A stretch of DNA of 64,000 nucleotides. Source: Candidatus Cloacimonadota bacterium. Lineage in GTDB: Bacteria; Cloacimonadota; Cloacimonadia; Cloacimonadales; TCS61. The number at the start of each line of letters is the position of its first letter. Positions within the stretch are counted from its first letter, which is position 1. The stretch is taken from NCBI GenBank assembly GCA_030600585.1, contig JAUVLU010000008.1, positions 6,431-70,430 of the forward strand, read 5' to 3'. A program made the position numbers and the translations under genes. The notes under the pieces are model-generated. The model worked only from the letters and a program-made list of their open reading frames with translations. It did not search any database and was not told the origin of the DNA. Below are positions 3,800 through 51,728 of this stretch, piece after piece.

Positions 3800-4374
3800 A
3801 ATATTTCCTCTAATAATTTGTAAAAGCGATATACCGGAAATCCCATTACATTAAAATAACAACCTGAAATTCTTTTAACGAATTGACTTCCCATACCTTG
3901 TATCCCGTATGCGCCGGCTTTGTCCATTGGCTCTTTTGTATTAATATATTCTTCGATCTCTTTTGCAGTAAGGTTCCTAAAAAACACTTTTGTCTTTTCA
4001 TAACCGGAATATATTTGATTCTTATAAGAAATTGCAACACCTGTATAAACGTAGTGATATGTGCCGGAAAGACGGGTAAGAAATTCTGCGGCTTGATATT
4101 TATTTTCAGGTTTTTCTAAAATGTCTGAATCCTGATAGACAATTGTATCACTGCCAACGATCAAATAATCGTTATCTACAATTTTTCTTATAGCAAGAGC
4201 TTTATTCTCTGCATGTGTTGTTACAAGTTTTCGTGGGTTATTGCAGAAATTGCTCTCATCGATATGAGCCGGCATTTGCAGTGCTGTTATACCGATCATC
4301 TCGAATATATTTTGTCTGCGTGGTGAAGCAGATGCAAGAATCACCTTTTTATTTTTTAAAATTTCATGGATCAT
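3796..4374 (-). CDS. maf: Maf-like nucleoside triphosphate pyrophosphatase
   Basis: 192 aa with VILASASPRRQ near the N-terminus and KAGAYGIQG near the C-terminus, both hallmark Maf motifs. Confidence 0.85.
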   Translation of the reverse strand: MIHEILKNKKVILASASPRRQNIFEMIGITALQMPAHIDESNFCNNPRKLVTTHAENKALAIRKIVDNDYLIVGSDTIVYQDSDILEKPENKYQAAEFLTRLSGTYHYVYTGVAISYKNQIYSGYEKTKVFFRNLTAKEIEEYINTKEPMDKAGAYGIQGMGSQFVKRISGCYFNVMGFPVYRFYKLLEEIL

Positions 4375-15216: not shown

Positions 15217-15222
15217 AAATAG

Positions 15223-16617
<1,395 letters not shown>

Positions 16618-21869: not shown

Positions 21870-22036
21870 AGTAGCCACCCCAGTTAGTCAATGGGGCAGG
21901 CAGACTGACACTAAAGAACATTTCTTGTTCGCATCCGGCAGTTGCCGGATTGCGGACACAATTGGATTGATAAGTTTAACTTATCAACCAGAATAATGGT
22001 AAAGCGAAAATCAATATGTTAAGTTATTAATTATTT

Positions 22037-22198
22037 ACGGAGAGTCCTGCCGTGTTGCATAACACGGTGCCGGAGCGGTTGAATCCCACACAGTATGCAC
22101 TATGGCTGACGGGACATGTGGGGTGGTCTCGTCCTGATATAGATTAATGAATAATTATTTGCGGAGAGTTGCCGGAGCGGTTGAACGGGGTGGTCTCG
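22037..22198 (+). repeat. 162-bp direct repeat, copy 1: expanded tRNA-Ser 5'-half-like element + spacer + clean tRNA-Ser 5' half
   Basis: Matches 22514-22675 with 5 mismatches and no indels. It ends at ..GGTCTCG, which is anticodon position 35 of the tRNA. Confidence 0.95.
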
Positions 22199-22502: not shown

Positions 22503-22513
22503 TTACATTATTA

Positions 22514-22675
22514 ACGGAGAGTCCTGCTGTGTTACATAACACGGTGCCGGAGCGGTTGAATCCCACACAGTATGCACTATGGCTGGCGGGACATGTGGGG
22601 TGGTCTCGCCCTGATATAGATTAATGAATAATTATTTGCGGAGAGTTGCCGGAGCGGTTGAACGGGGCGGTCTCG
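22514..22675 (+). repeat. 162-bp direct repeat, copy 2 (its last 36 nt are the 5' part of the functional tRNA-Ser)
   Basis: See copy 1. The only difference in the tRNA part is C22668 versus T in copy 1. Confidence 0.95.
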
Positions 22676-22729
22676 AAAACCGTTGTGCTCTTACGGGTAC
22701 CCAGGGTTCGAACCCCTGACTCTCCGCCA
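22640..22729 (+). tRNA. tRNA-Ser (anticodon CGA), class II with long variable arm, CCA encoded
   Basis: Hand fold: acceptor GGAGAGT/ACTCTCC, D stem CCG/CGG with the GAGCGGTTGAA loop, anticodon stem GCGGT/ACCGT, loop CTCGAAA (anticodon CGA), long variable arm, T arm CAGGG-TTCGAAC-CCCTG, discriminator G, CCA. Confidence 0.9.
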
Positions 22730-26621: not shown

Positions 26622-27194
26622 ATGAATAAATCCGATTTGGTTGTACTCGGATTCCTGAATTGGAAACCAATGTACGGTTATGAAATTATCCAATTTACAA
26701 AAATGAAAGGGCTCGATGTGTGGGCTGGAATTAAAATGCCTTCTATATATAAAGCATTGCAGCGATTGGAAACAAATAAATATATTTTCGGCAAACAAGT
26801 TATGGAAGGGAATAATCCGCCGCGAAAAGTATTTACTATCTCAAAAATTGGAACAAAACATTTTCGGAAGATTCTGATACATTTTCTGGAATCTAAAGGT
26901 GAACAGAATGCTGATTTCTGGATGGCTATCTCTTTTATGGGAAACGGGATAAGTAAAGAATTATTTCTTAATCTTTTAGATAAACAAATAGATAAAACAT
27001 TGATTCACATTAAACATCATAAAGAACATTGTAATATTCCTGAAGATGTATTGAAGAACATTCCTTTTTATATTCAAATATTAATGGAAATGGGAGAAGA
27101 GATGGCTAAAACTCAGAAACGAAACCTGATAAAATTGAAAAACGCAGTTCTCAAACCTGAAAATGAATTTGTATTTCTGGATAGTGAAACATAA
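26622..27194 (+). CDS. PadR-family transcriptional regulator
   Basis: LVVLGFLNWKPMYGYEIIQ winged-helix N-terminus typical of PadR. It lies directly upstream of efflux genes. Confidence 0.8.
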   Translation: MNKSDLVVLGFLNWKPMYGYEIIQFTKMKGLDVWAGIKMPSIYKALQRLETNKYIFGKQVMEGNNPPRKVFTISKIGTKHFRKILIHFLESKGEQNADFWMAISFMGNGISKELFLNLLDKQIDKTLIHIKHHKEHCNIPEDVLKNIPFYIQILMEMGEEMAKTQKRNLIKLKNAVLKPENEFVFLDSET

Positions 27195-27380: not shown

Positions 27381-28730
27381 TTGAGAAAAATAATTTTAAC
27401 TATAATTATTGTTGCATCTTGTTTTGTTTTGAATGCTGAAATTCTTACTTTGAATGATGCAAAAGAAATAGCACTTAAGAACAATCCCGAATATCTATCA
27501 AAAAAATATGCTCTTGAATCTGCAAAATGGAGTGAGATCAGTTCTCTCTCCGGTTTGCTGCCTGCTGCTAGTTTAACAGGTTCTCAAATTCAGATGAAAC
27601 CCGGAATGCCAACTATGATGAATCCAATTCCTGATGATGAAAAGAACACGCGCTCGATTGGATACTCGATAAATCAACCGTTATTTCTCGGTGGTAAACT
27701 CTGGCTTGGTTATAAAATTTCCCACGATACAAAACAGATGTCGGAATATACTCTTGCAGAACAAAAACTGAAAACTATTTCTGCAGTTGAGGAAAAATAT
27801 TTCAATCTTTTGGAAGCTGCAGAAATTCTGGAAATCGCAGAAGAACAGCTTCGTTCTGACGCATTAAATCTGGAAATCGCTGAAACAAGATACAAAATGG
27901 GAACGCTTTCCAATGTCGATCTTCTGAAAATCCAATCCGATAATGCTGCCAAGGAAACCGAACTGATCCAATCAAAAACTTTGTATTCGATCAATTATTC
28001 TGGTCTTAAAAATTATTTGCAATACCACAGTAATTTTGAAGTAGAAGATTTCGATACAACTATTTATAATGAACTAATTAAAAACCTGAACACTTTTGAT
28101 GAAAAACAAATAAATGATCTTATGAATGAATGTTTCCTGATTTCATTAAATGAGAATTTATCTATTAAAACACTTGAAGAAACAAAAAATATAGCAAAGA
28201 AAAGTGTGTTGATGGCAGCGGGGAATTTTCTTCCAACCTTGAATTTAAATTACAGTCAGACTTGGAGCAAATCCTGGAATGATATTCAAAGTGAATCGGA
28301 TTTTGGATATGAAGATTCTAAACAATTAGCATTAACGGCTTCTATCCCGATCTTTCCAATTGCTGATAATTTTGCTGATTATAAAAAAGCAAAATATGAA
28401 AAAAGAAAAACCGATGAGGAATATAAATCCGCAGAAAGTGGTATCAAACTTGATTTGGAAAGCTCTGTTTTGAATCTGATAAGTTCTGCAAAGCAGGTGA
28501 AAGCTTCCGAACTTACTTTGAATTTTACAACCGAATTACATTCTCAAATGAAAGAAAGATTCAAGAACGGAATGGTTTCAACAACCGAAATGCTCGATTC
28601 GGAAGTAATGCTTAAAGGTGCAAGAATTTCCAATATTCAAAGTTTATTCTCATTTATAAAAGCTAAATCAAAATTAATGCTGCTTCTCGGAATGGAAGAA
28701 GAAAACGAATTTTTGAAATTATTAAAATGA
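27381..28730 (+). CDS. TolC-family outer membrane efflux protein
   Basis: 449 aa with TTG start after AGGAGG, a signal peptide and the LTLNDAKEIALKNNPEY start typical of OEP family proteins. Duplicated coiled-coil halves. Confidence 0.8.
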   Translation: MRKIILTIIIVASCFVLNAEILTLNDAKEIALKNNPEYLSKKYALESAKWSEISSLSGLLPAASLTGSQIQMKPGMPTMMNPIPDDEKNTRSIGYSINQPLFLGGKLWLGYKISHDTKQMSEYTLAEQKLKTISAVEEKYFNLLEAAEILEIAEEQLRSDALNLEIAETRYKMGTLSNVDLLKIQSDNAAKETELIQSKTLYSINYSGLKNYLQYHSNFEVEDFDTTIYNELIKNLNTFDEKQINDLMNECFLISLNENLSIKTLEETKNIAKKSVLMAAGNFLPTLNLNYSQTWSKSWNDIQSESDFGYEDSKQLALTASIPIFPIADNFADYKKAKYEKRKTDEEYKSAESGIKLDLESSVLNLISSAKQVKASELTLNFTTELHSQMKERFKNGMVSTTEMLDSEVMLKGARISNIQSLFSFIKAKSKLMLLLGMEEENEFLKLLK

Positions 28731-28915: not shown

Positions 28916-30016
28916 ATGAAAATAAAATATTTACTGATAACCTTAATTGTGTTCTCAATATTGTTCGGTTGCGGGAAAGAATCTGAAGAAAAATCGGAAC
29001 TTTCCAAAAAAGGAAAAAGTAATACTGGAAAGAATATTCCCGTTATGGTGGAAAAAGTACAACCTAAAAATCTGGAGCAGTTCATAAAAGTAACCGGTAA
29101 ACTGGAAGGCTGGACAGATATCGTGATGACCTCTGAAACCAGCGGAAAGATTATCGAAATTAAAAAGCATCTTGGTGATCGGGTAGCAAAAGGTGAGGAA
29201 ATCGGTAGGATAGATAATAAAGATTATGAAATTCAGGTTAAACAATCTGAAGCATCGGTTCTAGCGGCAGAAGCATCTTATGAGGCGGCAGAATTGCAAA
29301 TGCAGGCTTCCGAAAATCTGTTTAAGAATAACAGCATTTCGCAGGTGGAATATTCCCAAAGTAAAAGTGCTTTTAAAAATGCTCTTGCCGGTGTTAAGGG
29401 TGCACAAGCAGGTCTGGAAAAATCTCAAAAAGCCTACGACAATTCGTGTTTTATTGCTCCTGTTTCCGGATTTATTACAGATATTCCTATCGAGATCGGA
29501 CAGACAATTTCATTCGGACAACCGGTTTGCAGTATCGTTGATTCCAAAAAAATGATAATTAAGACCGGAGTTGGTGAAAAGGAAGTTCAGAAACTAAAGA
29601 AAGGTCAGCAAGTAACTATTTCCAACGACGGAAAGAAAGATACTTTTTATGGGAAGATCACAGGCATCGGAATTAAACCCGTTAATAATTCAGCATCGTA
29701 TCCCATCGAGATCGAAATCGATAATCCAAAGGGAAAATTACTTCCGGGAATGGTGATCGAAGCAAGCATTCTAAGTAAAGTATTCAAAGATGTTATATAC
29801 ACTTCGATGAATAATATTTTTCAGGAATATGACGATTATTTTGCTTTTGTGATAGATTCGAAAAATAAAGCAGAACGTAGGAAAGTAACTCTTGGTGAGA
29901 AAGTCGGTGAAAACGTGATCATCATAAGTGGAATAAACATCGACGAAAAACTGGTGATCGAAGGTGTGGAAAACCTGGAAGACGGTTCTGTGGTTGATAT
30001 CAGGAAAGGTTTATAA
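28916..30016 (+). CDS. Efflux RND periplasmic adaptor (membrane fusion protein, HlyD family), lipoprotein
   Basis: 366 aa with lipobox LFGC. Lipoyl/hairpin region (GKLEGWTDIVMTSETSGKIIEI, ...APVSGFITD) typical of MFPs. Confidence 0.85.
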   Translation: MKIKYLLITLIVFSILFGCGKESEEKSELSKKGKSNTGKNIPVMVEKVQPKNLEQFIKVTGKLEGWTDIVMTSETSGKIIEIKKHLGDRVAKGEEIGRIDNKDYEIQVKQSEASVLAAEASYEAAELQMQASENLFKNNSISQVEYSQSKSAFKNALAGVKGAQAGLEKSQKAYDNSCFIAPVSGFITDIPIEIGQTISFGQPVCSIVDSKKMIIKTGVGEKEVQKLKKGQQVTISNDGKKDTFYGKITGIGIKPVNNSASYPIEIEIDNPKGKLLPGMVIEASILSKVFKDVIYTSMNNIFQEYDDYFAFVIDSKNKAERRKVTLGEKVGENVIIISGINIDEKLVIEGVENLEDGSVVDIRKGL

Positions 30017-30259
30017 AACTTGAATTAAGTTTGGCTTTAGCCGGGCTTGATTTAAGTTTTAAAAGGATCACACAAAACCAAGGAATGAAACGAAATAAAA
30101 TGATAATGAGAAATGTATGCGAGCTTAATTCAAGACCTTTGATCTTAAATCAAGTTCTTCAAACTTGCAAAAGACGCAAAAAATGAAATCAACTCAAATG
30201 ATGATGGAAAGCTAAAACTTAACTCATCACAAATAAATTTGAGATAAGTCAAGTTTTGA
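30017..30259 (+). repeat. ~243-bp direct repeat, left copy (REP-dyad-rich spacer)
   Basis: Aligns with 30936-31179 with one 1-nt indel and roughly 19 mismatches by my hand alignment. It starts right after the mfp stop. Confidence 0.9.
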
Positions 30260-30354
30260 AAATTAAGGTCAGCTTGATTTAAGTTGAACACGAATGAGAC
30301 TAAAAACTTAATTCAAGACTTTCAGTCTTAAATCAAGTTTTAATTGGAGGAAAA

Positions 30355-30933
30355 ATGAGGTGTAAACAAGAATTATTTCAAGTAAATAATTACTTCCATT
30401 TTTATAATAGAGCTATTGGAAGCGAAAAATTGTTCAAACATAATGACGATTATATTACACTTTTAACAAAATTAAAAAAAGTCCTTAAAGAATATCCTGC
30501 ATCAGTTTTTGCATATTGTTTAATGCCCAACCATTTTCACTTTCTGATGAGACAAGATAGTGATAAGCCGATAAATAAATTTTTTAATAATCTATTTTCA
30601 TTTTATGTTCAAAATTTCAATAAAAAATATAATCGAAAAGGACAACTTTTTCAGGGAAAATTACAGCATAAACTTATATCAAAAGAAAAATATTTGATTC
30701 ATCTTTGTCGTTATATCCATTATAATCCTGTTAAAGCAAATCTCGTTGATAAAATTGAAGACTGGAAATTTTCCAATTATCCAGAATGGATAAATATTAG
30801 GAAAGGTTCTCTTTTTAATAAAGAATTAAGAGATGAATATTTTCTTTCGATCTCTGAATACAAAGATTCAATCAAAGATTATGGGAAATATCTGGATGAA
30901 AAAGAATTTCAAAACTTACTTTTTGACTCTTAA
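30355..30933 (+). CDS. REP-associated tyrosine transposase (RAYT; IS200/IS605-like Y1 HUH transposase)
   Basis: 192 aa with the HUH motif in AYCLMPNHFHFLM and the catalytic Tyr region CRYIHYNPVKANLV. A single gene flanked by palindromic repeats, as for RAYTs. Confidence 0.8.
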   Translation: MRCKQELFQVNNYFHFYNRAIGSEKLFKHNDDYITLLTKLKKVLKEYPASVFAYCLMPNHFHFLMRQDSDKPINKFFNNLFSFYVQNFNKKYNRKGQLFQGKLQHKLISKEKYLIHLCRYIHYNPVKANLVDKIEDWKFSNYPEWINIRKGSLFNKELRDEYFLSISEYKDSIKDYGKYLDEKEFQNLLFDS

Positions 30934-30935
30934 AA

Positions 30936-31179
30936 AACTTGAATTAAGTTCGATTTTCAGTCGGGCTTGATTTAAGTTTTAAAAGGTTCACATAAAACCA
31001 AGGAATGAAACGAAATAAAATGATAATGAGAAATGTATGCGAACTTAATTCAAGACCTTTGATCTTAAATCAAGTTCTTCAAACTTGCAAAAGACGCAAA
31101 AAATAAAATCAACTCAAATAATGATGAAAAGTCAAAACTTAACTCATCAAGAATAAATTCGAGATAAGTCAAGTTTTGA
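30936..31179 (+). repeat. ~243-bp direct repeat, right copy
   Basis: See left copy. It is followed by the AAGGAG RBS of the RND pump gene. Confidence 0.9.
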
Positions 31180-31198
31180 TAAAAAAGGAGTAAATAAA

Positions 31199-34100
31199 AT
31201 GTCTATAGCGAAGTTTTCAGTTAATAATTCTGTTTTGATAAATATGGTAATGATCGTCGTTTTCATTGTCGGTATTTACACGATGATAGAAATTCCCAAA
31301 GAAGAGATGCCGGCAGTCGATTTTGGTTCTTTCGTAATTGTTATTCTGTATCCGGGAGTATCACCTTTGGAAATGGAGCAACTTGTAATTCAGAAAATCG
31401 AAGATGAGATCGGAGATGTGGAAAATATCGATTACATCGAATCCACAGCATCGGAAGGGAAAGCAATGATCTTTATTGTTTTTGAACCTGATGCGGACAT
31501 CGATAAGGCGGAGAACGACCTGCGGGCGGAATTGGATAAAGTGCGGGATTTGCCGGATGATGCGAATGATCCCTATATGCTTCGCTTGAATATGCGGGAA
31601 GTAAACGAGATGTGTGCGGTTGTTATCGGCGGAGAATTTTCCGGAAATGCGGTCAGGGAAATTTCCGAAGATCTGCGGGAAGAACTTCTTAACATCGATT
31701 ATGTTTCCAAAATCGATATTTTTGGAACGCAGGAAAGAGAGATTTGGATAGAAGGCGATATTAACAAATTAGATGAATTCGGTTTATCGTTATCTGACCT
31801 GCAAAACACAATTCAAATGCGAAATATGAATGTTCCTGCCGGAACAATAAAATTCGGGACTGCCGAGTTCATAATTCGCACAGTTGGTGAATTCAGTAAC
31901 ACCGATCAGATCGCAAATCTCGTAATTCGGATGGACAGCAACGGACGGGCAATGCGTATTCGTGATGTTGCCACCGTAAAAGATACTTTACAAGAACGCA
32001 GCATTATTTCCAAATTAGATGGAAGTCCCAGCGTTACTTTGTTCGTTTATAAAAAAGCGGACGGCAATATTATCAAAGTGATGAAAGATGTTCGTAATAA
32101 TATGGAGAAATTCAGGGAGAACATTCCGGGACTGGAAGCAGTTATTCGTAACGATGGTTCGATCGATGTAAAAAACAGTATTAATACTCTCGGGCAAAGT
32201 GCTTTTTTCGGTGTGATCCTTGTTTTCTTTTCTCTTTTCATTTTTCTTGGTTGGAGGAATGCTCTGTTTGCTTCTATCGGTATTCCATTCAGTTTCCTGC
32301 TCACGTTTATCCTGATGCAGTATTTTGATGTTACAATGAATAACCTGACTTTATTCGGATTGGTTCTGGTATTGGGAATGATCGTGGATGATGCGATAAT
32401 TGTGCTGGAAAATGTTCATCGTTATGTGGAAATGGGATTGAATGTGAAAGATGCTGCCATCAAGGGAACTCAAGAAATTATGTGGCCCGTGATCGCTGCT
32501 GTCAGCACGACTGCTGCTGCATTTGTTCCAATGCTGATGATGGAAGGTATGATGGGAAAATTTATGAGAGTTTTCCCGATCGTAGTAACACTTGCTCTCA
32601 TCGCTTCCCTTTTTGAATGTCTCGTTATCCTGCCTTCTCATATCGCCGAATTTTCCAAACCACAGAAAAAGAAGAAACCACACAAACTTCACGATGCTCT
32701 CGTCAGGAAATACAGACGTGCAATTAAATTCGTTTTGAGACATCGGTTTTTATCTATTTTGGCAGTAGTTACGGCACTTATTCTTTCTTTGATGACAATT
32801 GCATTCCGTCTTGTTCCATTTGAATTTTTCCCGGCACAAACTCCAAAAACTATCATTTTGAGATTGCAAACTCCCGTCGGAACGAATCTCGATAAAACCA
32901 ACGAAGTGGTATCAGACATTGAAGAATTTATCTATCAAATGAAAGAAAGGGAAGACATCGAAGCTGTGGTAACGACCGTTGGAATGATGGCAAAAAATAA
33001 AAGGTGGGATACAAAAACCAATAATGCGCAATTGCGGATCGACCTGAAAGACATCAATGATATGAAATATTCTCATACCGAGATAAAGAAAGCGATCCGT
33101 TCCTACCTGGAAAAATTACCCGGATTATATACTTACCAATTTTCTAAACCTCAACAAGGTGCACCTACCGGAAACGATGTTGAAATTCGTGTGAAAGGTG
33201 ATAATCTTGAGCGTTTGAAATATATCGGGAATATCATTAAGGACGAACTGGAAAAAATCCCGGGAGTTGTGGATATCGAGGATAGTTTCCAACCCGGTAA
33301 AAAAGAAGTTCAGATCATTCCAAAACACGAAAGACTTGCACTTTACGGTTTATCGGTTTCCCAGATTGCGGGTTTTATCAGAACCGCTTCTTACGGAACA
33401 ACGATTTCAAAATACAGGGGTGACGGAACGGATGAATATGATATAATTCTTCGTTTGAAAGAAGATCAGATCGATGATTTGAATGACCTCGATAATTTGA
33501 AAATACGCACCAGAAATGGTGATTTAATAAATTTGAATGAGTTGGCAGATTTTGAAATAAAATCCGGTTTAGCGCAGATAAAGCATCGTGATAAAAAACG
33601 GATCATCGTGATCACCGGCAATACGACTTTGTATAAAGATGGGAATAAAATGAAAAAGAGAAGCACGGATGATGTTATGCAAACATTGATGGGCAGCCGC
33701 ATCACAGGCGCAGAAGGAACTCTTTCCAATTTCCAGCAGCGTTTTCCGGGACATATCCTCGAATTCGGCGGAGTGGCAGAAGAGCAGAAAAAATCTTATA
33801 CTTCGTTGTTCCTTGCCTTTGGAGTTGCACTTCTTCTGATCTTCACAATTCTCGCTGCTCAGTTCAAATCTTATGTGCAGCCGTTTATCGTGATGATGAC
33901 AATTCCTTTCTCCTTGATCGGAGTGATCTTCGGACTTCTCGTTACCGGACTTCCCGCATCTTTGAACTCGCTCGTGGCGGTAGTTGCGCTTGCCGGAGTT
34001 GTGGTGAACGATTCGCTGGTTCTCGTGGATTTTGTGAACAGGGAACGTGATAAAGGTGTGGATCGCTGGAACTCGCTGATAAATGCAGGAGCAACCCGTC

Positions 34101-34354
34101 TGCGTCCGATCATTCTGACTTCGGTTACAACTATTTTTGGTCTGATGCCGATGATACTTTCTACTTCTCAATCTGCTTCGGAATGGAAACCGATGGCTGT
34201 TAGTATTGCGTTCGGACTTGCCTTTGCCACAGTTCTTACCTTGTTTGTAATTCCTGTTATTTATTCGCTTATGGATTCATTCTTCGGCAGGATCGGTGTT
34301 ACAAGATTTAAAACGCATTTGAGTTATGATGATTGTGTGGATTGTGATGAATAA
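31199..34354 (+). CDS. RND efflux transporter permease (AcrB/HAE family)
   Basis: 1051 aa with 12-TM/2-large-loop architecture. Conserved TM4 region GLVLVLGMIVDDAIIVLEN and second-half VALAGVVVNDSLVLVDF. Confidence 0.9.
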   Translation: MSIAKFSVNNSVLINMVMIVVFIVGIYTMIEIPKEEMPAVDFGSFVIVILYPGVSPLEMEQLVIQKIEDEIGDVENIDYIESTASEGKAMIFIVFEPDADIDKAENDLRAELDKVRDLPDDANDPYMLRLNMREVNEMCAVVIGGEFSGNAVREISEDLREELLNIDYVSKIDIFGTQEREIWIEGDINKLDEFGLSLSDLQNTIQMRNMNVPAGTIKFGTAEFIIRTVGEFSNTDQIANLVIRMDSNGRAMRIRDVATVKDTLQERSIISKLDGSPSVTLFVYKKADGNIIKVMKDVRNNMEKFRENIPGLEAVIRNDGSIDVKNSINTLGQSAFFGVILVFFSLFIFLGWRNALFASIGIPFSFLLTFILMQYFDVTMNNLTLFGLVLVLGMIVDDAIIVLENVHRYVEMGLNVKDAAIKGTQEIMWPVIAAVSTTAAAFVPMLMMEGMMGKFMRVFPIVVTLALIASLFECLVILPSHIAEFSKPQKKKKPHKLHDALVRKYRRAIKFVLRHRFLSILAVVTALILSLMTIAFRLVPFEFFPAQTPKTIILRLQTPVGTNLDKTNEVVSDIEEFIYQMKEREDIEAVVTTVGMMAKNKRWDTKTNNAQLRIDLKDINDMKYSHTEIKKAIRSYLEKLPGLYTYQFSKPQQGAPTGNDVEIRVKGDNLERLKYIGNIIKDELEKIPGVVDIEDSFQPGKKEVQIIPKHERLALYGLSVSQIAGFIRTASYGTTISKYRGDGTDEYDIILRLKEDQIDDLNDLDNLKIRTRNGDLINLNELADFEIKSGLAQIKHRDKKRIIVITGNTTLYKDGNKMKKRSTDDVMQTLMGSRITGAEGTLSNFQQRFPGHILEFGGVAEEQKKSYTSLFLAFGVALLLIFTILAAQFKSYVQPFIVMMTIPFSLIGVIFGLLVTGLPASLNSLVAVVALAGVVVNDSLVLVDFVNRERDKGVDRWNSLINAGATRLRPIILTSVTTIFGLMPMILSTSQSASEWKPMAVSIAFGLAFATVLTLFVIPVIYSLMDSFFGRIGVTRFKTHLSYDDCVDCDE

Positions 34355-34625
34355 AACCTTCCGAACGGTCTCTACCAGCGGTATTCTTCTTGCTTGACCT
34401 TCGGAACGGTTGAAATAGTTGAATCAGGCTTTGTTTTACTACGCCGTGTCAAGAAGGCGCTAAGAACGGAAAGGAAAGTAAAAAAACTAGACTTCTTCGG
34501 CAACTGCCGAATACGTCCGAGCAAGCGGAGAGTACGGAGAGAAAATTTAGTTTAATAGCCCAGCCGTTCACGGCTGGGAATGGATTGAGTGAGCTTTCTC
34601 ATTCCCAATTTTTCAGTTACCGGCT

Positions 34626-34664
34626 AACCCTGAAATTGCTAAATGGAAGATAAATTGAGAGAAG
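34626..34664 (+). repeat. AACCCTGAAATTGCTAAATG..ATAAATTGAGAGAAG repeat, copy 1
   Basis: Near-identical to 36741-36779 and related to 36891-36928. A fragment (aatttgagagaag) is also at 615-627. Confidence 0.8.
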
Positions 34665-36562: not shown

Positions 36563-36740
36563 TTCTCCTCCTTTTCAATAAGCTTAATTCATTTTTCTGT
36601 TTCGTTTCTTATATTTTATTAAAACTATTATATTAAATAAAATTTTATATAATTCTGTGTCAAATCATTTTCCCCTATATTTTCATAAGTGTAAAATAAT
36701 CCTTGCGATATTTTTATTGATTTTTTAATTTTTTTCAGCC

Positions 36741-36779
36741 AACCCTGAAATTGCTAAATGTATGATAAATTTAGAGAAG
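36741..36779 (+). repeat. AACCCTGAAATTGCTAAATG..ATAAATTTAGAGAAG repeat, copy 2
   Basis: Direct repeat of 34626-34664. The two copies bracket the three-gene AT-rich block. Confidence 0.8.
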
Positions 36780-36787
36780 TGGTCAAA

Positions 36788-36881
36788 ACTTGAGTTAAGT
36801 TTGCTTTAACTGACTTGACTTAAGCTTTCTATCTAACAGAAAACAGATAACTTAACTCAAGACTATCGTCTTAAATCAAGT
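36788..36881. repeat. REP-dyad cluster (ACTTGAGTTAAGT, ACTTGACTTAAGC, ACTTAACTCAAG, CTTAAATCAAGT)
   Basis: Two plus-oriented and two minus-oriented copies of the CTTGA-N-TTAAG dyad, the same organisation as beside the RAYT gene. Confidence 0.75.
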
Positions 36882-36890
36882 TTCTCTTTT

Positions 36891-36942
36891 AACCCTGAAA
36901 GAGCCAAATGCAAGAATTTGAGAAAGAGACTTTTTCAGGGTT
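36891..36942. repeat. Third, diverged copy of the AACCCTGAAA repeat, forming a hairpin with TTTCAGGGTT across the ATP-grasp stop codon
   Basis: AACCCTGAAA (36891-36900) and TTTCAGGGTT (36933-36942) are perfect inverted repeats. Confidence 0.7.
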
Positions 36943-38198: not shown

Positions 38199-41100
38199 AT
38201 GAAAAAGATTGTATTTTTAATACTTTTTGTAGTTTTCGCAATTAGCATTTCCTATGCATGGCGCAATGCCGAAATGGAAGTGAGGGTTTTTTATAACAAC
38301 CAATATGAACTCGCAAAATTAGCTGAACTTCGTTTGGATGGAGATGTCTATCCCAATGGTGAAGCATTATTATTTGTTATTCCATCCGAACTGGAAATGA
38401 TAAAAGCTACCGGGCTCAAATATAAGATCGAACGGGAAGATTTGAATGAATCTTCCAGGAATTTCTGGCAGTCGATGGACCCCACCCGCGAAGCTTATCA
38501 CACTTATGCAGAAATTGTTGCTATGGCAGACAGTCTGGCAACTGCGTTTCCCGACATCTGTGAAAAGCACATGTTCGGTACTTCCGTGCAGGGAAGGGAA
38601 CTTGCTGCGCTTAAAATAACCGATAACGTTTCGCTCGATGAGAATGAAGCAGAAGTGATGTTCGACGGTGGAATTCATGGTGATGAGATAGGATGTTCTG
38701 AAAATTGTATTCGTTTTGCCCGTGATCTATGCCGCGATTATAGCACAGATCCTTATATTGCTGAACTCATAGATAACCATGAAATATGGATTTATTATTG
38801 TGTAAATCCTGATGGACGTGTAGCAGATGACCGCGAAAATGCTAATGGAGTTGATTTAAATCGCGACTCCGGTTATATGTGGGATGGATGGGGAGGAAGC
38901 TCGGGTGCATTTTCTCAACCTGAGTCGAAGGCTCTCAGAGATTGCCATTACAATCGTCAATTTGTTGTTCATACCACCTACCACAGCGGTACGGAATATA
39001 TTTCCTGCCCATGGAGTTATCGCTCCAGTCAATGTCCCGATTTCGATCATATTATTCAACTCGCAGGCGAATATTCTTCCTCGTCCGGTTATGCAAATAT
39101 ACCATATGGACAGGGTTGTACGGGAATGTATCCTATCAACGGAAGCACAAAAGACACGAATTACGGCATGATGGGAGCTATTAGTTGGTCGATGGAAATT
39201 TCTTACAACAAGCATCCGCCTGCATCACAAATTCAGATGTATTATCAATATAACGTTCCGGCTATGCTCAGTATGATCGAACATTCCGGTTATGGTTTGG
39301 AAGGAATTGTAACCGATGCAAATACCGGTGAACCGGTTACTGCTAATGTATTTATTAATGATTATTTCCCATGCTATACCGATCCGGTTGTTGGTGATTA
39401 TCATAAATATGTTCTTCCCGGAACTTATGATATTACAATTGTGGCAAACGGCTATGAATCGCAAACCATTACCGATGTTACTGTAAGCGCAAATAGTTCG
39501 GAAGTAACTGATTTCCAGTTGCAACCTTTGGAAGGACAATTTGTTTATAAAATATCAGCTTCTCAAATTCCCAATAACAACACTGCGGATGAAGGAGATA
39601 CACCGGGGGTAATTGGAGCACCTGACAGCAGAAATTATTCTATCGGTAAGAACGGCTGGGTGGTTCTTGATATGCAATATCCCATTCCAGATGGAGCGGG
39701 AAATGATATAAAAATATTTGAAGGAGATGCGTCGCCGGAAGGATATACTTGTTATGTCGGAGAATTCATCGATGGACCCTGGTATTCATTAGGAACAGGT
39801 AACGGAACTACAGAATTTGACATAGCATTAAGCAGTCTTATAGAAGCTCAATTTATAAAGATATTAGATGATGGAGATGGAACTGCTATTGCTGCCAATG
39901 CCGGTTTTGATCTGGATGCTGTTGCTGCCCTGGAAAGCTTTTCCGGAGTTTATATTGGTTTGATGAACTACGAAATTGATGATACTGCTGGGAATAGTAA
40001 TGGCAGAATCGATCCCGGAGAAACTGTGAATATTGTTGTCACTCTTTTGAATAATAGTAATATTATAGTAGAAGATATTGAAGGAATGATAAATACGATT
40101 TCTCCATATATTATCCTCAATGTTGCTTTTGCAGACTTTGGCGACCTTGCTCCGGATCAAACAGGAGAAGGAGTATTTACCATAACAGCTGATGATATTA
40201 CACCTGTCGGAGAGGAATTTGAACTTGAATTGGATGTAACTGCTAACTCCGGAGCATATACAAATAATTTTACCATGTCTTTCTCAGTTGGTGGTTTTTT
40301 AATAGAAGAATATTTTGATGGTGCTTCTTATCCTCCAACCGACTGGAGTATAAGCGGATCCAATCCTGGCAACTGGTCTTCATCAAGTACAGCAAATGCC
40401 GGAGGATCCGCACCTGAATCCAAATTTAGCTGGTCTCCATCATTTGTTGGCGAATCTGCTCTTACTTCACCTGTGATCAACACAATGGGATTTACAAATC
40501 TGGTACTTACTTATAAACATTTCCTGAATGATTGGAGTGGTAATGGTTATTCCATCGGTGTAAAAACAACCTCTGATGGCGGCAGCACATGGAATACTGT
40601 TTATGAAGTATTTCCAACCGGAGATATTGGACCGGAAATACTGGAACTTACAATTGAAACTTCAGATGTAGGTTCACCTACATTCCAGATTGCGTTCTTC
40701 TTTAATGGAAACAGCTTTAATTTGGATTATTATTACATTGATAATGTGATTCTGGAAGGAGAAGCAGGCGAATTCAATCCACCACAAACCTTGGCTGTAG
40801 AATGCATCGAAGATTATGCTCACTTCACATGGGAAGCCCCGGCTGTCGATCTGAATTCCAGGGACAAAGATACAAAAGCAAAAGCAGAAGAAACACGTGA
40901 TCTGACAGGTTATAATGTATATCTGGATCAAGTAGAAGTGGCAAACAATATCCCGGATCTGGAATATGATTTCTATGATCTGGTTAATGGTGATTACTAC
41001 GATGCAGGCGTAAAAGCTATCTATGATGATGGTACATCCGAACTTGTAGAGATCAACTTCCTGGCCGAAATAACTGGTGCAGGAAATATCTTGCCGCTGG

Positions 41101-41375
41101 TCACAAAACTTACCGGCAACTATCCGAATCCATTTAATCCGACAACAACGATCAGCTTCTCAACAAAAGAAGCAGGTCATGTTTCAATTAATATTTACAA
41201 CATGAAAGGTCAGCTTGTTAAAACACTTATAAATGAGAATCTTGAAGAAGATTATCATGATGTTATATGGAACGGTAAAGATAACAGTAATAAGACAGTT
41301 TCAAGTGGTATATATTTCTACAAAATGAAATCCGGTAACTATACTGCAACAAAGAAAATGATCCTTATGAAATAA
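38199..41375 (+). CDS. M14-family zinc carboxypeptidase with T9SS C-terminal sorting domain
   Basis: 1058 aa with a signal peptide. M14 motifs GGIHGDEIG (H-x-x-E) and VNPDGR. C-terminus NYPNPFNPTTTISF...SGIYFYKM...KKMILMK is the T9SS type-A CTD pattern. Confidence 0.85.
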   Translation: MKKIVFLILFVVFAISISYAWRNAEMEVRVFYNNQYELAKLAELRLDGDVYPNGEALLFVIPSELEMIKATGLKYKIEREDLNESSRNFWQSMDPTREAYHTYAEIVAMADSLATAFPDICEKHMFGTSVQGRELAALKITDNVSLDENEAEVMFDGGIHGDEIGCSENCIRFARDLCRDYSTDPYIAELIDNHEIWIYYCVNPDGRVADDRENANGVDLNRDSGYMWDGWGGSSGAFSQPESKALRDCHYNRQFVVHTTYHSGTEYISCPWSYRSSQCPDFDHIIQLAGEYSSSSGYANIPYGQGCTGMYPINGSTKDTNYGMMGAISWSMEISYNKHPPASQIQMYYQYNVPAMLSMIEHSGYGLEGIVTDANTGEPVTANVFINDYFPCYTDPVVGDYHKYVLPGTYDITIVANGYESQTITDVTVSANSSEVTDFQLQPLEGQFVYKISASQIPNNNTADEGDTPGVIGAPDSRNYSIGKNGWVVLDMQYPIPDGAGNDIKIFEGDASPEGYTCYVGEFIDGPWYSLGTGNGTTEFDIALSSLIEAQFIKILDDGDGTAIAANAGFDLDAVAALESFSGVYIGLMNYEIDDTAGNSNGRIDPGETVNIVVTLLNNSNIIVEDIEGMINTISPYIILNVAFADFGDLAPDQTGEGVFTITADDITPVGEEFELELDVTANSGAYTNNFTMSFSVGGFLIEEYFDGASYPPTDWSISGSNPGNWSSSSTANAGGSAPESKFSWSPSFVGESALTSPVINTMGFTNLVLTYKHFLNDWSGNGYSIGVKTTSDGGSTWNTVYEVFPTGDIGPEILELTIETSDVGSPTFQIAFFFNGNSFNLDYYYIDNVILEGEAGEFNPPQTLAVECIEDYAHFTWEAPAVDLNSRDKDTKAKAEETRDLTGYNVYLDQVEVANNIPDLEYDFYDLVNGDYYDAGVKAIYDDGTSELVEINFLAEITGAGNILPLVTKLTGNYPNPFNPTTTISFSTKEAGHVSINIYNMKGQLVKTLINENLEEDYHDVIWNGKDNSNKTVSSGIYFYKMKSGNYTATKKMILMK

Positions 41376-41464
41376 GGGAATTACGCTCTGACCTTTTCTG
41401 GAAGGGGCAACTTTTCAATCCTTATGAAATAGTAATACAAAGCTCTGTCTTTGTGAATTGAATA

Positions 41465-41498
41465 AGTCCTTCGGTGAAAGCTGAGGGGCTTTTTTTTT
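41465..41498 (+). terminator. Rho-independent terminator after the M14 gene
   Basis: AGTCCTTC-ggtgaaagct-GAGGGGCT (two G.U pairs) followed by T8. Confidence 0.6.
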
Positions 41499-41683
41499 GA
41501 TGTACCACGTTCACCTTGAACGTGTTGTTTTCAACGTGTTATCCTGAACGTGCTGTTCACAACGTGTTATCTTTTACTCTCGTTCCCAAAGCCCTCTTTG
41601 GGAATGCAATAAAATCTCAGCAGGTTACCAATCCAGTCTTCGTAAACTACGCCTTGGCAAGCAGGGGATTGGTAACCAGAATA
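41499..41683 (+). repeat. 185-bp intergenic module, copy 1
   Basis: Aligns without indels to 43586-43770 with 6 mismatches. It contains the AACGTG array and two long hairpins. Confidence 0.95.
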
Positions 41684-41720
41684 TTTGTGAATTGGTAACC
41701 AGAATAATGGTTAAAGGCGG

Positions 41721-41766
41721 ATAAATCCTGAACGTGTTTGAACGATCGGGACGATCGTTTTACTTT
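41721..41766 (+). repeat. 46-bp module (ATAAATCCTGAACGTGTTTGAACGATCGGGACGATCGTTTTACTTT), copy 1
   Basis: Matches 43988-44033 with 2 mismatches. It contains the palindrome AACGATCG-gga-CGATCGTT. Confidence 0.9.
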
Positions 41767-42128: not shown

Positions 42129-43373
42129 ATGAAAAAAACAATGATTTTTGCAACAATTCTTTTACTTGCAGTTAGTGCCTTCGCTATAAACCCTCCTACA
42201 GATGTAGCCGTAGATGATCTTACCGGTACGGTAACTTGGTCTGAACCTGTTGTAAGTGGAGTAATTATCGAAGATAACTTTGATAGTTATACCGTAGGTG
42301 ATTACCTTGCTGTAGTTGATGAATATTGGACAACCTGGTCAAATAATCCGGGTGGACCTGAAGATGCATTGATAACAGATGTAGAATCAAACAGTCCATC
42401 TAATTCTGTATTAGTTGAATTAAATAATGACGTTGTCCTTATTATGGAAAACTACACATCTGGTGTATATTCAATTGAACTTAGTATGTTTGTACCTACA
42501 GGTTATTGCGGATATTTTAACCTGCAAAAAACAAATGTTCCAGGTACGGAATGGGCATTCCAGATTTACTTCCAGACAGATGGAGTAGCATTGGCTGATG
42601 CCGGTGGTGCCGGTGCTCTAACTTATAATTTCAATCACGATGAGTGGATGGATCTTAAATTGATAGTTGACTTAGATACCGATTGGGCTACTTACTATCA
42701 TAATGGCGTAGAGATGATAGGATATGCATATTCAACAGGATGTTTTGGAACAAGTGCTCTTTTATCATTTGGTGGAGTTAACGTGTTTGGCGGTGCAAAT
42801 CCAAGCGGTCCTGGAGATACTCCAATGTTCTATTTCGATGATGTTATTCTAAGTACTGCAGTAGCTCCAACTCGTGACCTTACCGGTTACAATGTATATC
42901 TTGATGATATGATAACTCCTGTTACTACAGTTGGTATCGATGTATTTGAATATACATATGAAGCTCTTGTAAATGGTCAGGAATATACAGCAGGCGTTTC
43001 CGCTGTTTATGATGAAGGTGAGTCTGAGATAATTGAAGTTATTTTTGTTTACGGTGGAAATTCTGCTGGAAATGTTGTAATAGCAACAACGCAACTTAAC
43101 GATAATTATCCAAATCCGTTCAATCCTATTACAAATATTGCATATTCAATAAAAGATGCCGGTAATGTAACAATTGAAGTTTACAACTTGAAAGGTCAGC
43201 TTATTAGAACACTTGTTAATGAAGTTAAAACAACAGGTGATCATACAGTAATCTGGGATGGTACAGATAATTCTAACAAGTCTGTTTCCAGTGGTGTATA
43301 TTTCTATAAGATGGTTTCAGACAGCAACATTGGCAGATATACTTCCACAAAGAAAATGATTCTTTTGAAATAA
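42129..43373 (+). CDS. T9SS-sorted surface protein (unknown N-terminal domain + FN3-like module + CTD)
   Basis: 414 aa with a signal peptide. C-terminal NYPNPFNPITNIAYS...SGVYFYKM...KKMILLK. The RDLTGYNVYLD module is shared with the M14 protein. Confidence 0.75.
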   Translation: MKKTMIFATILLLAVSAFAINPPTDVAVDDLTGTVTWSEPVVSGVIIEDNFDSYTVGDYLAVVDEYWTTWSNNPGGPEDALITDVESNSPSNSVLVELNNDVVLIMENYTSGVYSIELSMFVPTGYCGYFNLQKTNVPGTEWAFQIYFQTDGVALADAGGAGALTYNFNHDEWMDLKLIVDLDTDWATYYHNGVEMIGYAYSTGCFGTSALLSFGGVNVFGGANPSGPGDTPMFYFDDVILSTAVAPTRDLTGYNVYLDDMITPVTTVGIDVFEYTYEALVNGQEYTAGVSAVYDEGESEIIEVIFVYGGNSAGNVVIATTQLNDNYPNPFNPITNIAYSIKDAGNVTIEVYNLKGQLIRTLVNEVKTTGDHTVIWDGTDNSNKSVSSGVYFYKMVSDSNIGRYTSTKKMILLK

Positions 43374-43555
43374 GGAAATTTCGCCTGACCACTCACGAGT
43401 GGTCAGGCAACTTTTCAATTCTTTTGAAATAGTAATACAAAGCTCCATAATACCTTGCGAACGGTGCATTGGCTTGAGTAGCAAACGATGCTGGAATTCT
43501 CTTGCATGTCGAACGGTTGTAAACCTTCGCAACGGTTAATGTGAGCTGTTAGAAA

Positions 43556-43585
43556 TTAGCCCCGGTTTGCCGGGGCTAATTTTTT
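43556..43585 (+). terminator. Strong rho-independent terminator
   Basis: TTAGCCCCGG-tttg-CCGGGGCTAA followed by T6. It sits immediately 5' of repeat copy 2. Confidence 0.75.
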
Positions 43586-43770
43586 GATGTACCACGTTCA
43601 CCTTGAACGTGTTGTTTTCAACGTGTTATCCTGAACGTGCTGTTCACAACGTGTTGTCTTTTACTCTTGTTACCAAAGCCCTTTTTGGGAACGCAATAAA
43701 ATCTCAGCAGGTTACCAATCCAGTCTTCGTAAACTACGCCTTGGCAAGCAGGGGATTGGTAAGCAGAATA
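43586..43770 (+). repeat. 185-bp intergenic module, copy 2
   Basis: See copy 1. Here it lies between convergent genes. Confidence 0.95.
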
Positions 43771-43987
43771 AAACACACGATCTTGTATCCAAGCCCCAGC
43801 TTGGAAACATCTGATACAGAATAATTTTACTGAATAGGGTTACCAAGCAGGGGATTGGCAACCAGAATATTTTTGGATTGGTAACCAGAATATCAATATA
43901 TCAGCTCTTCAGCTTTTCTGAGGGGCTTTTATTATACCACGTTCACTCAGAGCCAAGAAAACTGGCGGACTTGTAAGCCTACGGCTT

Positions 43988-44033
43988 ATAAATCCTGAAC
44001 GTGTTTGAACGATCGGGGCGATCATTTTACTTT
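43988..44033 (+). repeat. 46-bp module, copy 2
   Basis: See copy 1. It ends 5 nt before the stop codon of the minus-strand gene. Confidence 0.9.
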
Positions 44034-51500: not shown

Positions 51501-51613
51501 TCTGGAATGGAACAGACGACAATAACAAACCTGTCTCTTCCGGAGTCTATTTCTATCGTTTGATAGCTGATGATAAAATTATTGATACGAAACGGATGCT
51601 GCTGCTAAAATAG
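48521..51613 (+). CDS. Large T9SS-sorted surface protein (N-terminal module shared with the M14 protein, CarboxypepD_reg-like beta-sandwiches, CTD)
   Basis: 1030 aa with a signal peptide. Two segments are like GYVLDDEDNPLEDAQITIEE..NNQGYYHF..GIYDFTAEMMGY. C-terminal NYPNPFNPTTTISFS...SGVYFYRL...KRMLLLK. Confidence 0.75.
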   Translation: MKKLIFVFVSFLFLTAGFAEIIIEEDFSGTFPPDGWNAYGMNPGNWSQSSTANAGGIAPELKFSWSPSFTGEAIFASGPVNTVGASTLDLIYSHFLNDFSGSGYTIGVKTSSDGVNWNTAYEVAPTGDIGPVVENLTITTSDVGSATFQLGFFFNGYSFNLDYWYIDDVFLEGTLITYDNDLAGMDISGDTVINAGNTENYDITVKNVGNNTQNSYTVKLYKNNDEELSSIDISQTIAPDETVVHNLVWNVPANEPAGMVDLYGKVILAGDENTANDETNTLEVEVFPPGILEITVGDGTENNNRTPLCFQYKNSLTEIIYFADELAGAEGMITALTYYNNFTNNLLNKPTAIWLGETTQTNLTNGWIPSTSLTEVFNGNVSYPSGTNNVTIQFTTPYFYNGGNLVVMVFRPMDTQNYGMNDEFIHDTTPDMIDRTRYERDDNIVLDPANPPDISYTGEFFANTTFTFFLGAMGEVEGYVLDDEDNPLEDAQITIEETQTVTYTNNQGYYHFGNVITGIYDFTAEMMGYSPQTITGEVIENEITQVDFSMIPLGIVSVLGHVVGSDFPEVGLENAVVEITGFENYQATTNGNGDFTIEGVYTNITYNILITYDGYDNYIDEISVGGTTLDLGTIILSEIAFPPGNVQAVQNVEGTEVTLNWSSPGQGGGEFRYDDGDYEFQLGYNSTPANAVFGAVHPYISVVQEIHWYLCSNYVSHDQVKLYLFGLNEDNEPNTDIVLYESGYVDNIDDEWNTYYITVPVEAYEGFFVGVSTPNEYTSIGMDDGTGEPWEFQTGTQFCKENWTSSGSWTNVESYGPNYERNFMIRAYGINMGNTLTENVVLHETKCINKTLKSRSFESYNVYRFYDFQHNDPGSWELIGEGIEDTVYVDISWINLPNAAYQFAVRSVYTNGIESIPAFSAIIEKTSASADDLPQLKTQLFANYPNPFNPTTTISFSVAQNSDFVTLNIYNIKGQKLKTFPINQFTNQPIHQIIWNGTDDNNKPVSSGVYFYRLIADDKIIDTKRMLLLK

Positions 51614-51624
51614 TGATATATGCT

Positions 51625-51728
51625 CTTGTATCCAAGCTTCAGCTTGGATACAAATAATCAACGTGATGAGAAGGTTTCCAAGCTGGGGCTTGGAAACCAG
51701 AATACTATATCCAAGCTGGGGCTTGGAT
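51625..51728. repeat. Three consecutive CCAAGC-N4-GCTTGG hairpins
   Basis: TTGTATCCAAGC-ttca-GCTTGGATACAA (51625-51652), GGTTTCCAAGC-tggg-GCTTGGAAACC (51672-51697) and TATCCAAGC-tggg-GCTTGGATA (51707-51728). Confidence 0.9.

Follow-up and report, generated by a model that had tools for sequence, protein, structure and literature searches.

Why does a gene for a transposase-like protein lie between the adaptor and pump genes of an efflux operon, and why is it bracketed by direct repeats of about 243 bp? This question is raised by a stretch of 64,000 nt from a contig of a Candidatus Cloacimonadota bacterium (referred to below as the window), in which a resistance-nodulation-division (RND) efflux operon, with all of its genes on the plus strand, harbors a co-oriented open reading frame (ORF) of 192 aa in the spacer between the genes for the periplasmic adaptor and the inner-membrane pump (Table 1). 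An earlier note on this DNA had identified the ORF as a REP-associated tyrosine transposase (RAYT), where REP stands for repetitive extragenic palindrome, and had proposed that it was inserted there as a unit of ~920 bp into a spacer that would otherwise measure ~260 bp. Our results make it probable that the RAYT resides in the adaptor-pump spacer amid clusters of its own cognate REPs, that the direct repeats are a product of REP turnover, and that an effect on the operon is a likely side effect. Statements on abundance refer to the 64-kb window. Related contigs are designated by L and a number, and the adaptor-pump junction was read in 13 of them.

Sequence comparison and a predicted structure both indicate that the 192-aa protein is closer to TnpA-REP, the RAYT of Escherichia coli, than to the TnpA proteins of the IS200/IS605 family. 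The ORF matches Pfam Y1_Tnp (PF01797, E 1.1e-8), a domain named 'Transposase IS200 like', and contains the HUH motif (H60-F-H62) and the Tyr motif (Y120-IHYNP) that had previously been described as intact; H60, H62, Y120, N124, and P125 are invariant among 50 homologs. A sequence search of the PDB gave a single match, E. coli TnpA-REP (4ER8, E 6.1e-5), and in this alignment HFH lies over HMH and RYIHYNPVK over DYIYINPVK. An AlphaFold (AF2) model, based on the 50 homologs, has a mean predicted local distance difference test score (pLDDT) of 94.8, and a Foldseek search of the PDB once more ranks 4ER8 first (E 1.3e-9, TMt 0.70, 167 columns aligned), whereas the E values for TnpA from IS608, IS200, and ISDra2 are no better than 1.3e-5, with 108-138 columns aligned. 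The protein continues for 72 residues C-terminal to Y120, and residues 142-186 are helical in the model. E. coli TnpA-REP has a C-terminal extension of ~25 aa that is autoinhibitory and absent from IS200/IS605 enzymes (PMC3479197). About 419 homologs were found, mostly in metagenome-assembled genomes of Cloacimonadota, and some of them carry the JGI name RayT. The gene has no tnpB partner next to it, because both adjacent genes, as identified with Pfam, are efflux genes, and tblastn of the window detected one RAYT copy in the 64 kb. The RAYT assignment of the earlier note is thus well founded, considering the sequence and fold matches to 4ER8, the inverted REPs on both sides, the lack of tnpB, and the single copy in the window; the profile search that had been suggested along with it returned the Y1_Tnp match given above.

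Each REP consists of two direct copies of an 11-nt unit, CTTGANTTAAG, that pair with one another to form a hairpin of ~22 bp, separated by a loop of 14-17 nt (long-loop class) or 7-10 nt (short-loop class). Because positions 4 and 8 of the unit pair as G·T wobbles on one strand and become A·C mismatches on the complement, the stem is continuous on one strand only, and we denote the two orientations REP(+) and REP(-). When folded as single-stranded DNA (ssDNA), the REP(+) at 30014-30061 reaches -11.1 kcal/mol on the plus strand (z -5.3) versus -5.8 kcal/mol on the minus strand, and the REP(-) at 30303-30341 reaches -10.4 kcal/mol on the minus strand (z -6.5) versus -7.5 kcal/mol on the plus strand. 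The central N of the two units is complementary in nearly all copies, counted over the window together with related contigs of low GC: the pair is A/T (12 cases), G/C (9 cases), or C/C (1 case) in the long-loop class, and T/A (10 cases), C/G (5 cases), or T/G (1 case) in the short-loop class, and the loop-proximal stem covaries as well (GGC/GCC, CGAC/GTCG). It is thus the hairpin, beyond the sequence as such, that has been conserved. The hairpin feet are runs of A and T (e.g., TAAAA...TTTTA), and the REPs are arranged singly, as inverted doublets (REPINs), or in clusters.

Reading from the adaptor to the pump gene, the elements are the adaptor stop codon, REP(+), REP(-), a degenerate hairpin, half of a REP(+), REP(-), the RAYT gene, REP(+), REP(-), and a second degenerate hairpin, and the two RAYT-proximal hairpins are inverted relative to each other. 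The adaptor stop codon TAA (30014-30016) itself forms the base of the first REP(+). That the sequence following the adaptor stop codon recurs behind that of the RAYT, claimed previously at ~90% identity, is real and slightly closer than that: 30017-30262 and 30934-31198 display 93% column identity (MAFFT), and an ungapped core (30036-30268 versus 30956-31188) is 93% identical with a period of 920. Each copy of this direct repeat (233-252 bp) begins at a stop codon and extends as far as the AAGG of a ribosome-binding site; good ribosome-binding sites precede both the RAYT gene (GGAGG at 30346-30350) and the pump gene. As the two copies differ at 7% of their positions, the duplication is not recent.

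The junction was compared among relatives, as had been recommended, and the RAYT proved to be present in some of the 13 contigs and absent from others (Table 1). The RAYT-free junctions of L005, L128-L131, and L007 are in accord with the term "inserted" used in the earlier note, but the proposed entry of a 920-bp unit into a ~260-bp spacer did not hold up. The spacers of these RAYT-free relatives are unrelated, none of them resembling one 243-bp unit. Of the RAYT-bearing relatives, four (five contigs, with L001, L006, L132, and L134 among them) were examined for the upstream 243-bp copy and all lack it; three of these relatives (four contigs) carry only a single REPIN upstream. In the alignment, L001 and L006 have one REPIN upstream of the RAYT where the window has 338 bp, L132 agrees with L006 in this respect, and L134 is similar, with other REP remnants upstream of its RAYT. 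The 338-bp spacer of the window consists of three joined pieces: a REPIN of the L006 type, the tail end of the downstream cluster, and a partial REPIN of the L001 type. Because RAYT-bearing relatives lack the upstream copy, this copy is specific to the window lineage, in which the REP cluster expanded locally at a later time, and is not the scar of a 920-bp insertion. The possibility that the REPs are target-site duplications was also considered and rejected, given the RAYT-bearing relatives without the upstream copy.

A tree of the adaptor gene places the RAYT-bearing members of the close group (window, L006, and L132) in one clade (bootstrap 75.5) that is nested among RAYT-free lineages. Two of the RAYT-free contigs, L128 (7125-7275) and L131 (7104-7250), harbor a hairpin doublet (ACTCGAGTTCA...GGACTTGAGT and TTCTGAACTCCAC...GTGAAGTCCAGTC) of a family that flanks the 61% identical RAYT of L137 in several copies (160-395, 968-1100). 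The junction has thus repeatedly been home to REP-type repeats, with a RAYT in only some lineages. REP copy number at the junction differs even between lineages with ~90% DNA identity in the flanking genes.

Other features were observed in or near the same operon of the relatives. The spacer of L005 (3492-3879) consists of two tandem copies of ~185 bp, GCGGCTAAAGAAGAAGAATATAAGCCGC...CCTTAGCG, and that of L133 (4130-4377) of at least three tandem 60-bp copies (GTCGAGAACAACCAGATCGCAATCC.AAGTTGGACTTGACTCGCAGCGAAGTGTGA), within which the contig ends. L134 (GCA_030612605.1) has a restriction-endonuclease-like gene (PDDEXK_13/REase-ARP, 2976-3851) inserted between the genes for the outer-membrane efflux protein (OEP) and the adaptor, and Cas6b and Cas_TM1802 genes (13492-16133) 4 kb downstream of the pump gene. 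The pump fragment of L002, used as a query for more L002 context, returned distant fragments only.

The same REPs are found away from the enzyme. Within the window, CTTGAWTTAAG occurs 12 times against 0.2 expected (100 shuffles), 11 times at the RAYT locus and once at 36870; if the center is left free, 15 CTTGANTTAAG units are counted, 11 at the RAYT locus and 4 at 36789-36880. The latter belong to a dispersed REPIN that lies in a gap between two minus-strand genes, ~6 kb from the RAYT locus, and is 81-89% identical to REPINs in L017, L069, L071, L099, and L127. Metagenome contigs were scanned with the pattern ACTTGANTTAAG-N8-26-CTTGANTTAAG, from which the REPIN counts are lower bounds and not densities, and REPs or REPINs of the window family were found in intergenic gaps of at least 14 low-GC contigs. 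These contigs contain neither a RAYT nor flank homology to the window, and where a blastn match was obtained, their REPINs are 76-90% identical to that of the window. The link between this enzyme and dispersed REPs that the earlier note had drawn is thus supported qualitatively, by the REPIN in the window and by the intergenic REPINs of the other contigs.

The relationship extends to homologs of the enzyme. The same REP core flanks the RAYT genes of L001 and L134 (91% identity), L002 (82%), L136 (65%), L003 (62%), and L021 (47%), and different hairpins flank those of L137 (61%) and L095 (41%). The repeats track RAYT relatedness, with close homologs keeping the core and two others having different hairpins. 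The REP(-)-RAYT-REP(+) layout is also present in L001, L002, L134, and L136, and in reverse orientation in L003. A REPIN-RAYT-REPIN layout likewise recurs, as the RAYT of L021 has REPINs on both sides in the form of ~110-bp direct repeats.

With regard to the individual contigs, in L136 (274-2074) the 65% identical RAYT lies between purS and a gene for a purQ-like amidotransferase, co-oriented with them, in the order REP(-), gene, REP(+), REP(-). In L095 (3600-3700), on the 3' side of the 41% identical RAYT, GGGGGTGTCCTGGTTTCGACAGGG resembles the 5' end of a tmRNA gene and is a candidate for one. Most of what the metagenome scan yielded belongs to an abundant repeat that is unrelated to the REPs, ACTTGACTTAAGTCTAGCCGACTTGACTTAAG (GC 0.40-0.48, two JGI samples). 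In L008-L125 (JGI Ga0209052 and Ga0056124, GC 0.40-0.48) an unrelated palindromic repeat, ACTTGACTTAAGTC(T/A)AG(C/T)CGACTTGACTTAAG, is very abundant; it has the core CTTGACTTAAG in common and saturated the scan.

How long has the gene been at this site? Its ratio of nonsynonymous to synonymous divergence (dN/dS) is 0.03-0.12 (window versus L001, L002, and L006), and among close lineages its dS is 0.38-0.55, compared with 0.42-0.68 for its neighbors. The low dN/dS and the neighbor-like dS indicate that the RAYT is a functional gene under purifying selection, and that it has been at this site since the close lineages split. When the window is compared with L134, the RAYT has a dS of 0.54, and its proportion of synonymous differences (pS) stays within 0.35-0.41 from end to end. 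For the pump gene dS is 1.85, with a pS of 0.65 already in the first 80 codons; the adaptor gene has reached saturation, with a pS of 0.88 over the final 80 codons; and the OEP and PadR genes have dS values of 1.47 and 0.79. DNA identity to L134 is 86-90% in the RAYT and adjacent REPs, 77% in the pump gene, and 66% in the adaptor gene. In the comparison with L002, the RAYT dS is 0.86 and the pump gene is saturated. Because the RAYT dS is far below the pump dS in L134, the RAYT-REP cassette and its flanks have had different histories: either it was the cassette that passed between lineages, or an exchange affected the efflux genes to its left and right, and under both alternatives the breakpoints would lie within the REP clusters. 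A slow synonymous rate as the cause of the low RAYT dS was rejected, as among close lineages RAYT dS equals that of the neighbors.

This raises the possibility, which we consider rather unlikely, that the RAYT and its REP arms constitute a discrete, horizontally exchangeable cassette, with the REP clusters serving as recombination arms. A RAYT is found at the adaptor-pump junction in at least three divergent backgrounds, those of the window, L134 (adaptor 56%, pump 84%), and L002 (pump 66%), and in sister lineages the same spacer holds REPINs of another family. Homologs with 61-65% identity are located in other intergenic gaps, co-oriented with their neighbors: between purS and purQ in L136, between a radical-SAM gene and an unknown gene in L003, and before a response regulator in L137. 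As these three sit elsewhere, the association with efflux genes is limited to the clade of at least 82% identity. If the cassette reading were true, the adaptor-pump junction would be a preferred landing pad, and the cassette would be a built-in attenuator of pump expression, retained by selection. This would run counter to the idea that RAYTs do not move and are passed on vertically.

As for the operon, the REP(+) hairpins are predicted to fold strongly on the sense transcript, at -26.1 kcal/mol (30014-30061) and -24.7 kcal/mol (30934-30980). Both adjoin stop codons, with that of the adaptor inside the first stem and the second hairpin starting from the base after that of the RAYT. The earlier note had suggested that transcription of the pump gene should be uncoupled from, or re-regulated relative to, tolC-mfp. 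The likeliest consequence would be continued co-transcription, with hairpin-dependent protection of 3' ends or partial attenuation.

Taken together, we propose that the enzyme, by analogy with E. coli TnpA-REP (PMC3479197), would bind the better-folding REP strand as ssDNA and would cleave and rejoin nearby DNA through Tyr120 and a metal bound by the HUH motif. REPs and REPINs would thereby be copied, lost, or rearranged, and the ~243-bp direct repeat would be one such rearrangement, in which the upstream spacer gained a second version of the REP cluster found downstream. On the sense strand, the REP(+) hairpins would probably act as barriers at mRNA 3' ends or as partial attenuators, lowering the expression of the pump relative to that of the adaptor.

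Several observations weigh against this proposal. The RAYT scores 80.0 bits against NCBIfam NF047646 (REP_Tyr_transpos), for which the cutoff is 80, and is thus borderline. Bertels et al. (2017, PMC5581495) recognize RAYTs by flanking 16-mers that a genome holds in excess in its extragenic DNA, and within the 64 kb the exact flanking 16-mers are confined to the RAYT locus, a result that, coming from the window only, is uninformative as a test. Neither GTAG nor CGTC, the tetranucleotides conserved at one foot of the palindrome in the classical REP superfamilies, is present at either foot of the window REPs, and E. coli TnpA-REP needs such a 5' head (PMC3479197, PMC3733652); as the GTAG head is absent, the guide and cleavage sequences must differ from those of E. 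coli. A scan of 30017-31198 gave nothing beyond chance expectation, with no sigma-70-like promoter (at least 10/12 matches) and no consensus intrinsic terminator, although these consensus sequences may not suit the phylum, and the regulatory effect is therefore one that we infer. Finally, the 243-bp duplication could equally have arisen through unequal homologous recombination between REPs, with no RAYT activity.

Alternative explanations were weighed against the same data. A cassette of ~920 bp may have entered a ~260-bp spacer through a Campbell-type single crossover or REP-to-REP recombination and left the 243-bp repeats as its footprint, which would account for a period of exactly 920 bp and for repeats that each start at a stop codon and end at a ribosome-binding site. 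The RAYT-free junctions in close relatives, the distinct history of the cassette with respect to its flanks (dS and pS against L134), and the direct REPIN repeats around the RAYT of L021 also fit such an entry. We nevertheless regard it as improbable, because in L001, L006, L132, and L134 a RAYT occupies the junction but is not preceded by the 243-bp copy, the first three having only a REPIN of 136-155 bp there, because no RAYT-free relative has a spacer resembling one 243-bp unit, and because the 7% difference between the copies excludes a recent duplication. That an ordinary, autonomous IS200/IS605 insertion sequence transposed into the operon has been largely refuted and retains only a trace of probability: the sequence and fold of the enzyme are nearest to TnpA-REP and not to the TnpA of IS200, IS608, or ISDra2, the 72-residue extension follows the catalytic Tyr, the flanking hairpins are inverted and are also met elsewhere as isolated doublets that lack the gene, the 64 kb contain a single copy with no adjacent tnpB, and among close lineages the dS equals that of the neighbors with a dN/dS of 0.03-0.12. 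What speaks for it are the Pfam label, the presence or absence of the gene among relatives, and a gene history unlike that of the flanks.

The hairpins could instead be primarily RNA elements internal to the operon (attenuators, mRNA stabilizers, or bidirectional terminators) that set the adaptor-to-pump stoichiometry, with the RAYT as an inactive passenger. Hairpins with an A4-stem-T4 structure that fold on the sense transcript at -25 to -26 kcal/mol, and that start within or directly behind stop codons, would suit this role; the G·T wobbles favor the transcribed strand for REP(+), and all examined relatives with 85-92% identity in the adaptor keep a long, structured spacer (285-389 bp), even those without a RAYT. 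This explanation appears very improbable to us in view of the intact RAYT under strong purifying selection, the occurrence of the same hairpins in both orientations and between unrelated genes, the tracking of RAYT relatedness by the repeats, and the lack of a detected consensus terminator. A RAYT residing among its cognate REPs, with turnover of these REPs, is the reading that we prefer.

Table 1. Positions (nt) of features in the window, and state of the adaptor-pump junction in related contigs (percentages are identities to the window).
Feature	Location	Strand	Remarks
PadR regulator gene	26622-27194	+	Upstream of OEP gene
Outer-membrane efflux protein (OEP/TolC-like) gene	27381-28730	+	First structural gene of operon; Pfam OEP, E 1.2e-53
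RND periplasmic adaptor (HlyD/MFP, membrane fusion protein) gene	28916-30016	+	Pfam HlyD_3, HlyD_D23
REP(+), long-loop	30014-30061	+	CTTGAATTAAG, 16 nt, CTTGATTTAAG; 22 pairs including two G·T
Direct repeat, upstream copy (~243 bp)	30017-30268	+	REP(+), spacer, REP(-), degenerate hairpin
REP(-), short-loop	30121-30157	-	Minus strand: CTTGATTTAAG, 9 nt, CTTGAATTAAG
Degenerate REP-like hairpin	30214-30257	+	CTTAACTCA...TAAGTCAAG; DNA fold -7.0 kcal/mol, z -2.6
Half REP	30271-30285	+	Single CTTGATTTAAG unit; remnant of REP(+) of RAYT-proximal REPIN, intact in L001
REP(-)	30303-30341	-	Directly before RAYT ribosome-binding site; kept in L001, L134, L136
RAYT gene (192 aa)	30355-30933	+	ATG start; HUH at 60-62, Tyr at 120
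REP(+)	30934-30980	+	From first base past RAYT stop; DNA fold -10.3 kcal/mol, z -5.2
Direct repeat, downstream copy	30936-31188	+	Ends at pump ribosome-binding site
REP(-), short-loop	31042-31076	-	
Degenerate REP-like hairpin, inverted repeat	31131-31180	+	RNA fold -15.9 kcal/mol, z -6.2
RND inner-membrane pump (AcrB family) gene	31199-34354	+	Pfam ACR_tran, E 3.8e-215
Dispersed REPIN (~100 bp)	36785-36885		REP(+) with GAGTT/GACTT units, 25 nt, inverted REP
CCAAGCCCCAGCTTGG copies	694-709, 43789-43804, 43843-43858, 51632-51647, 51678-51693, 51711-51726		
Repeated blocks	41107-41766 vs 43093-44033; 40355-40759 vs 48637-49038		
Left-end tandem repeats (72-bp and 21-bp)	47-387 and 705-790		
Junction, adaptor 95%	L001		RAYT present; single REPIN upstream (136 bp)
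Junction, adaptor 92%	L006, L132		RAYT present; single REPIN upstream (~155 bp)
Junction, adaptor 56%, pump 84%	L134, L135		RAYT present; without 243-bp upstream copy
Junction, pump N terminus 66%	L002		RAYT present; two tandem REPINs downstream
Junction, adaptor 91%, pump 94.5%	L005		RAYT absent; 389-bp spacer, two unrelated ~185-bp tandem copies
Junction, adaptor 85-88%	L128-L130, L131		RAYT absent; spacers of 375 and 285 bp
Junction, adaptor 60%	L007		RAYT absent; 78-bp spacer

The window contains further repeats. A second intergenic family, GCYAACCCTGAAATTGCTAAATG...GAGAAG (~42 nt, 64-90% identical), is present at 34623-34664, 36738-36779, and 36888-36929, so that two copies bracket the dispersed REPIN and one is located just past the pump gene; in the same areas, 36885-36941 matches L051 (1265-1322, 88%) and 34568-34625 matches L134 (11028-11085, 90%). 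The 16-nt near-palindrome CCAAGCCCCAGCTTGG occurs in six copies (0-2 mismatches) versus 0 expected and may be another REP-like family, for which the window holds no associated enzyme. Several blocks (40-199 bp) recur ~2 kb or ~8.3 kb apart with 75-96% identity, probably because paralogous genes resemble one another in their 3' ends and intergenic regions, and matches to L107 and L099 were obtained for 41118-41320 and 51347-51561 as well. At 22030-22198 and 22507-22675 lies a direct repeat of 169 bp (96% identical), the second copy of which overlaps the 5' part of tRNA-Ser(cga) (22640-22729); such a pattern could mark an integration site. The tandem repeats at the left end are a 72-bp repeat of 4.7 copies with 75% matches and a perfect 21-bp repeat, CTTGGAAACCAGAATATCAAA, of 4.1 copies. 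An Rfam search of the whole window gave 0 families at gathering score.

Full-text searches of one collection of papers found no description of REPs or RAYTs in Cloacimonadota, and our results would extend the range of RAYT/REPIN systems to this uncultured, AT-rich phylum. The REP design, with its two 11-nt units, G·T wobbles, and no GTAG head, offers a clean substrate for studying how RAYTs read hairpins. The states of the junction, which include empty spacers, REP-type doublets of another family, unrelated tandem repeats, and a RAYT with variable numbers of REPs, form a series that could show the growth of REP clusters and the gain, loss, and exchange of a RAYT. For annotation, RAYT is the appropriate designation of the gene, rather than IS200 transposase, and it would be wrong to term the operon disrupted.

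Known systems resemble this locus in different respects. REPs inside E. coli operons (e.g., malE-malF) stabilize the upstream mRNA and lower downstream expression. As in malE-malF, strong stem-loops lie here between two operon genes, right after a stop codon; unlike malE-malF, the spacer also holds a transposase gene. RAYT-REPIN systems of Pseudomonas fluorescens SBW25 were reportedly described by Bertels and Rainey in 2011. As in SBW25 (PMC5581495), inverted doublets flank the RAYT and are scattered extragenically, and the RAYT is under purifying selection; the SBW25 RAYT is single-copy, and one copy is present here within the 64-kb window. REPIN abundance appears low here in comparison with SBW25, with one in the 63 kb outside the locus, and RAYTs there are reported to be mostly vertically inherited (PMC5581495), whereas the cassette described here is discordant with its flanking genes. 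The TnpA enzymes of IS200/IS605 elements (IS608, ISDra2, IS200), which act on ssDNA hairpins, have the HUH/Y1 fold in common with our protein but differ from it as obligate dimers of ~125-150 aa (PMC3479197). Those elements have end hairpins on the same strand, are multicopy, and often carry tnpB, none of which applies in the window. The likeness to E. coli K-12 TnpA-REP (YafM, 4ER8) covers both enzyme and setting: each is a single-domain Y1/HUH enzyme with a C-terminal extension, encoded amid cognate REPs that are clustered in alternating orientation (REPs and bacterial interspersed mosaic elements). The two proteins are 18% identical in the structural alignment, ours being larger (192 versus 165 aa) with a longer helical C terminus, and our REPs, unlike those of E. 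coli, are AT-rich, consist of two direct 11-nt units, and are without the 5' GTAG that TnpA-REP requires (PMC3479197). In both systems the hairpin has a strand-specific imperfection, which is a bulge in the E. coli REPs and a pair of G·T wobbles here.

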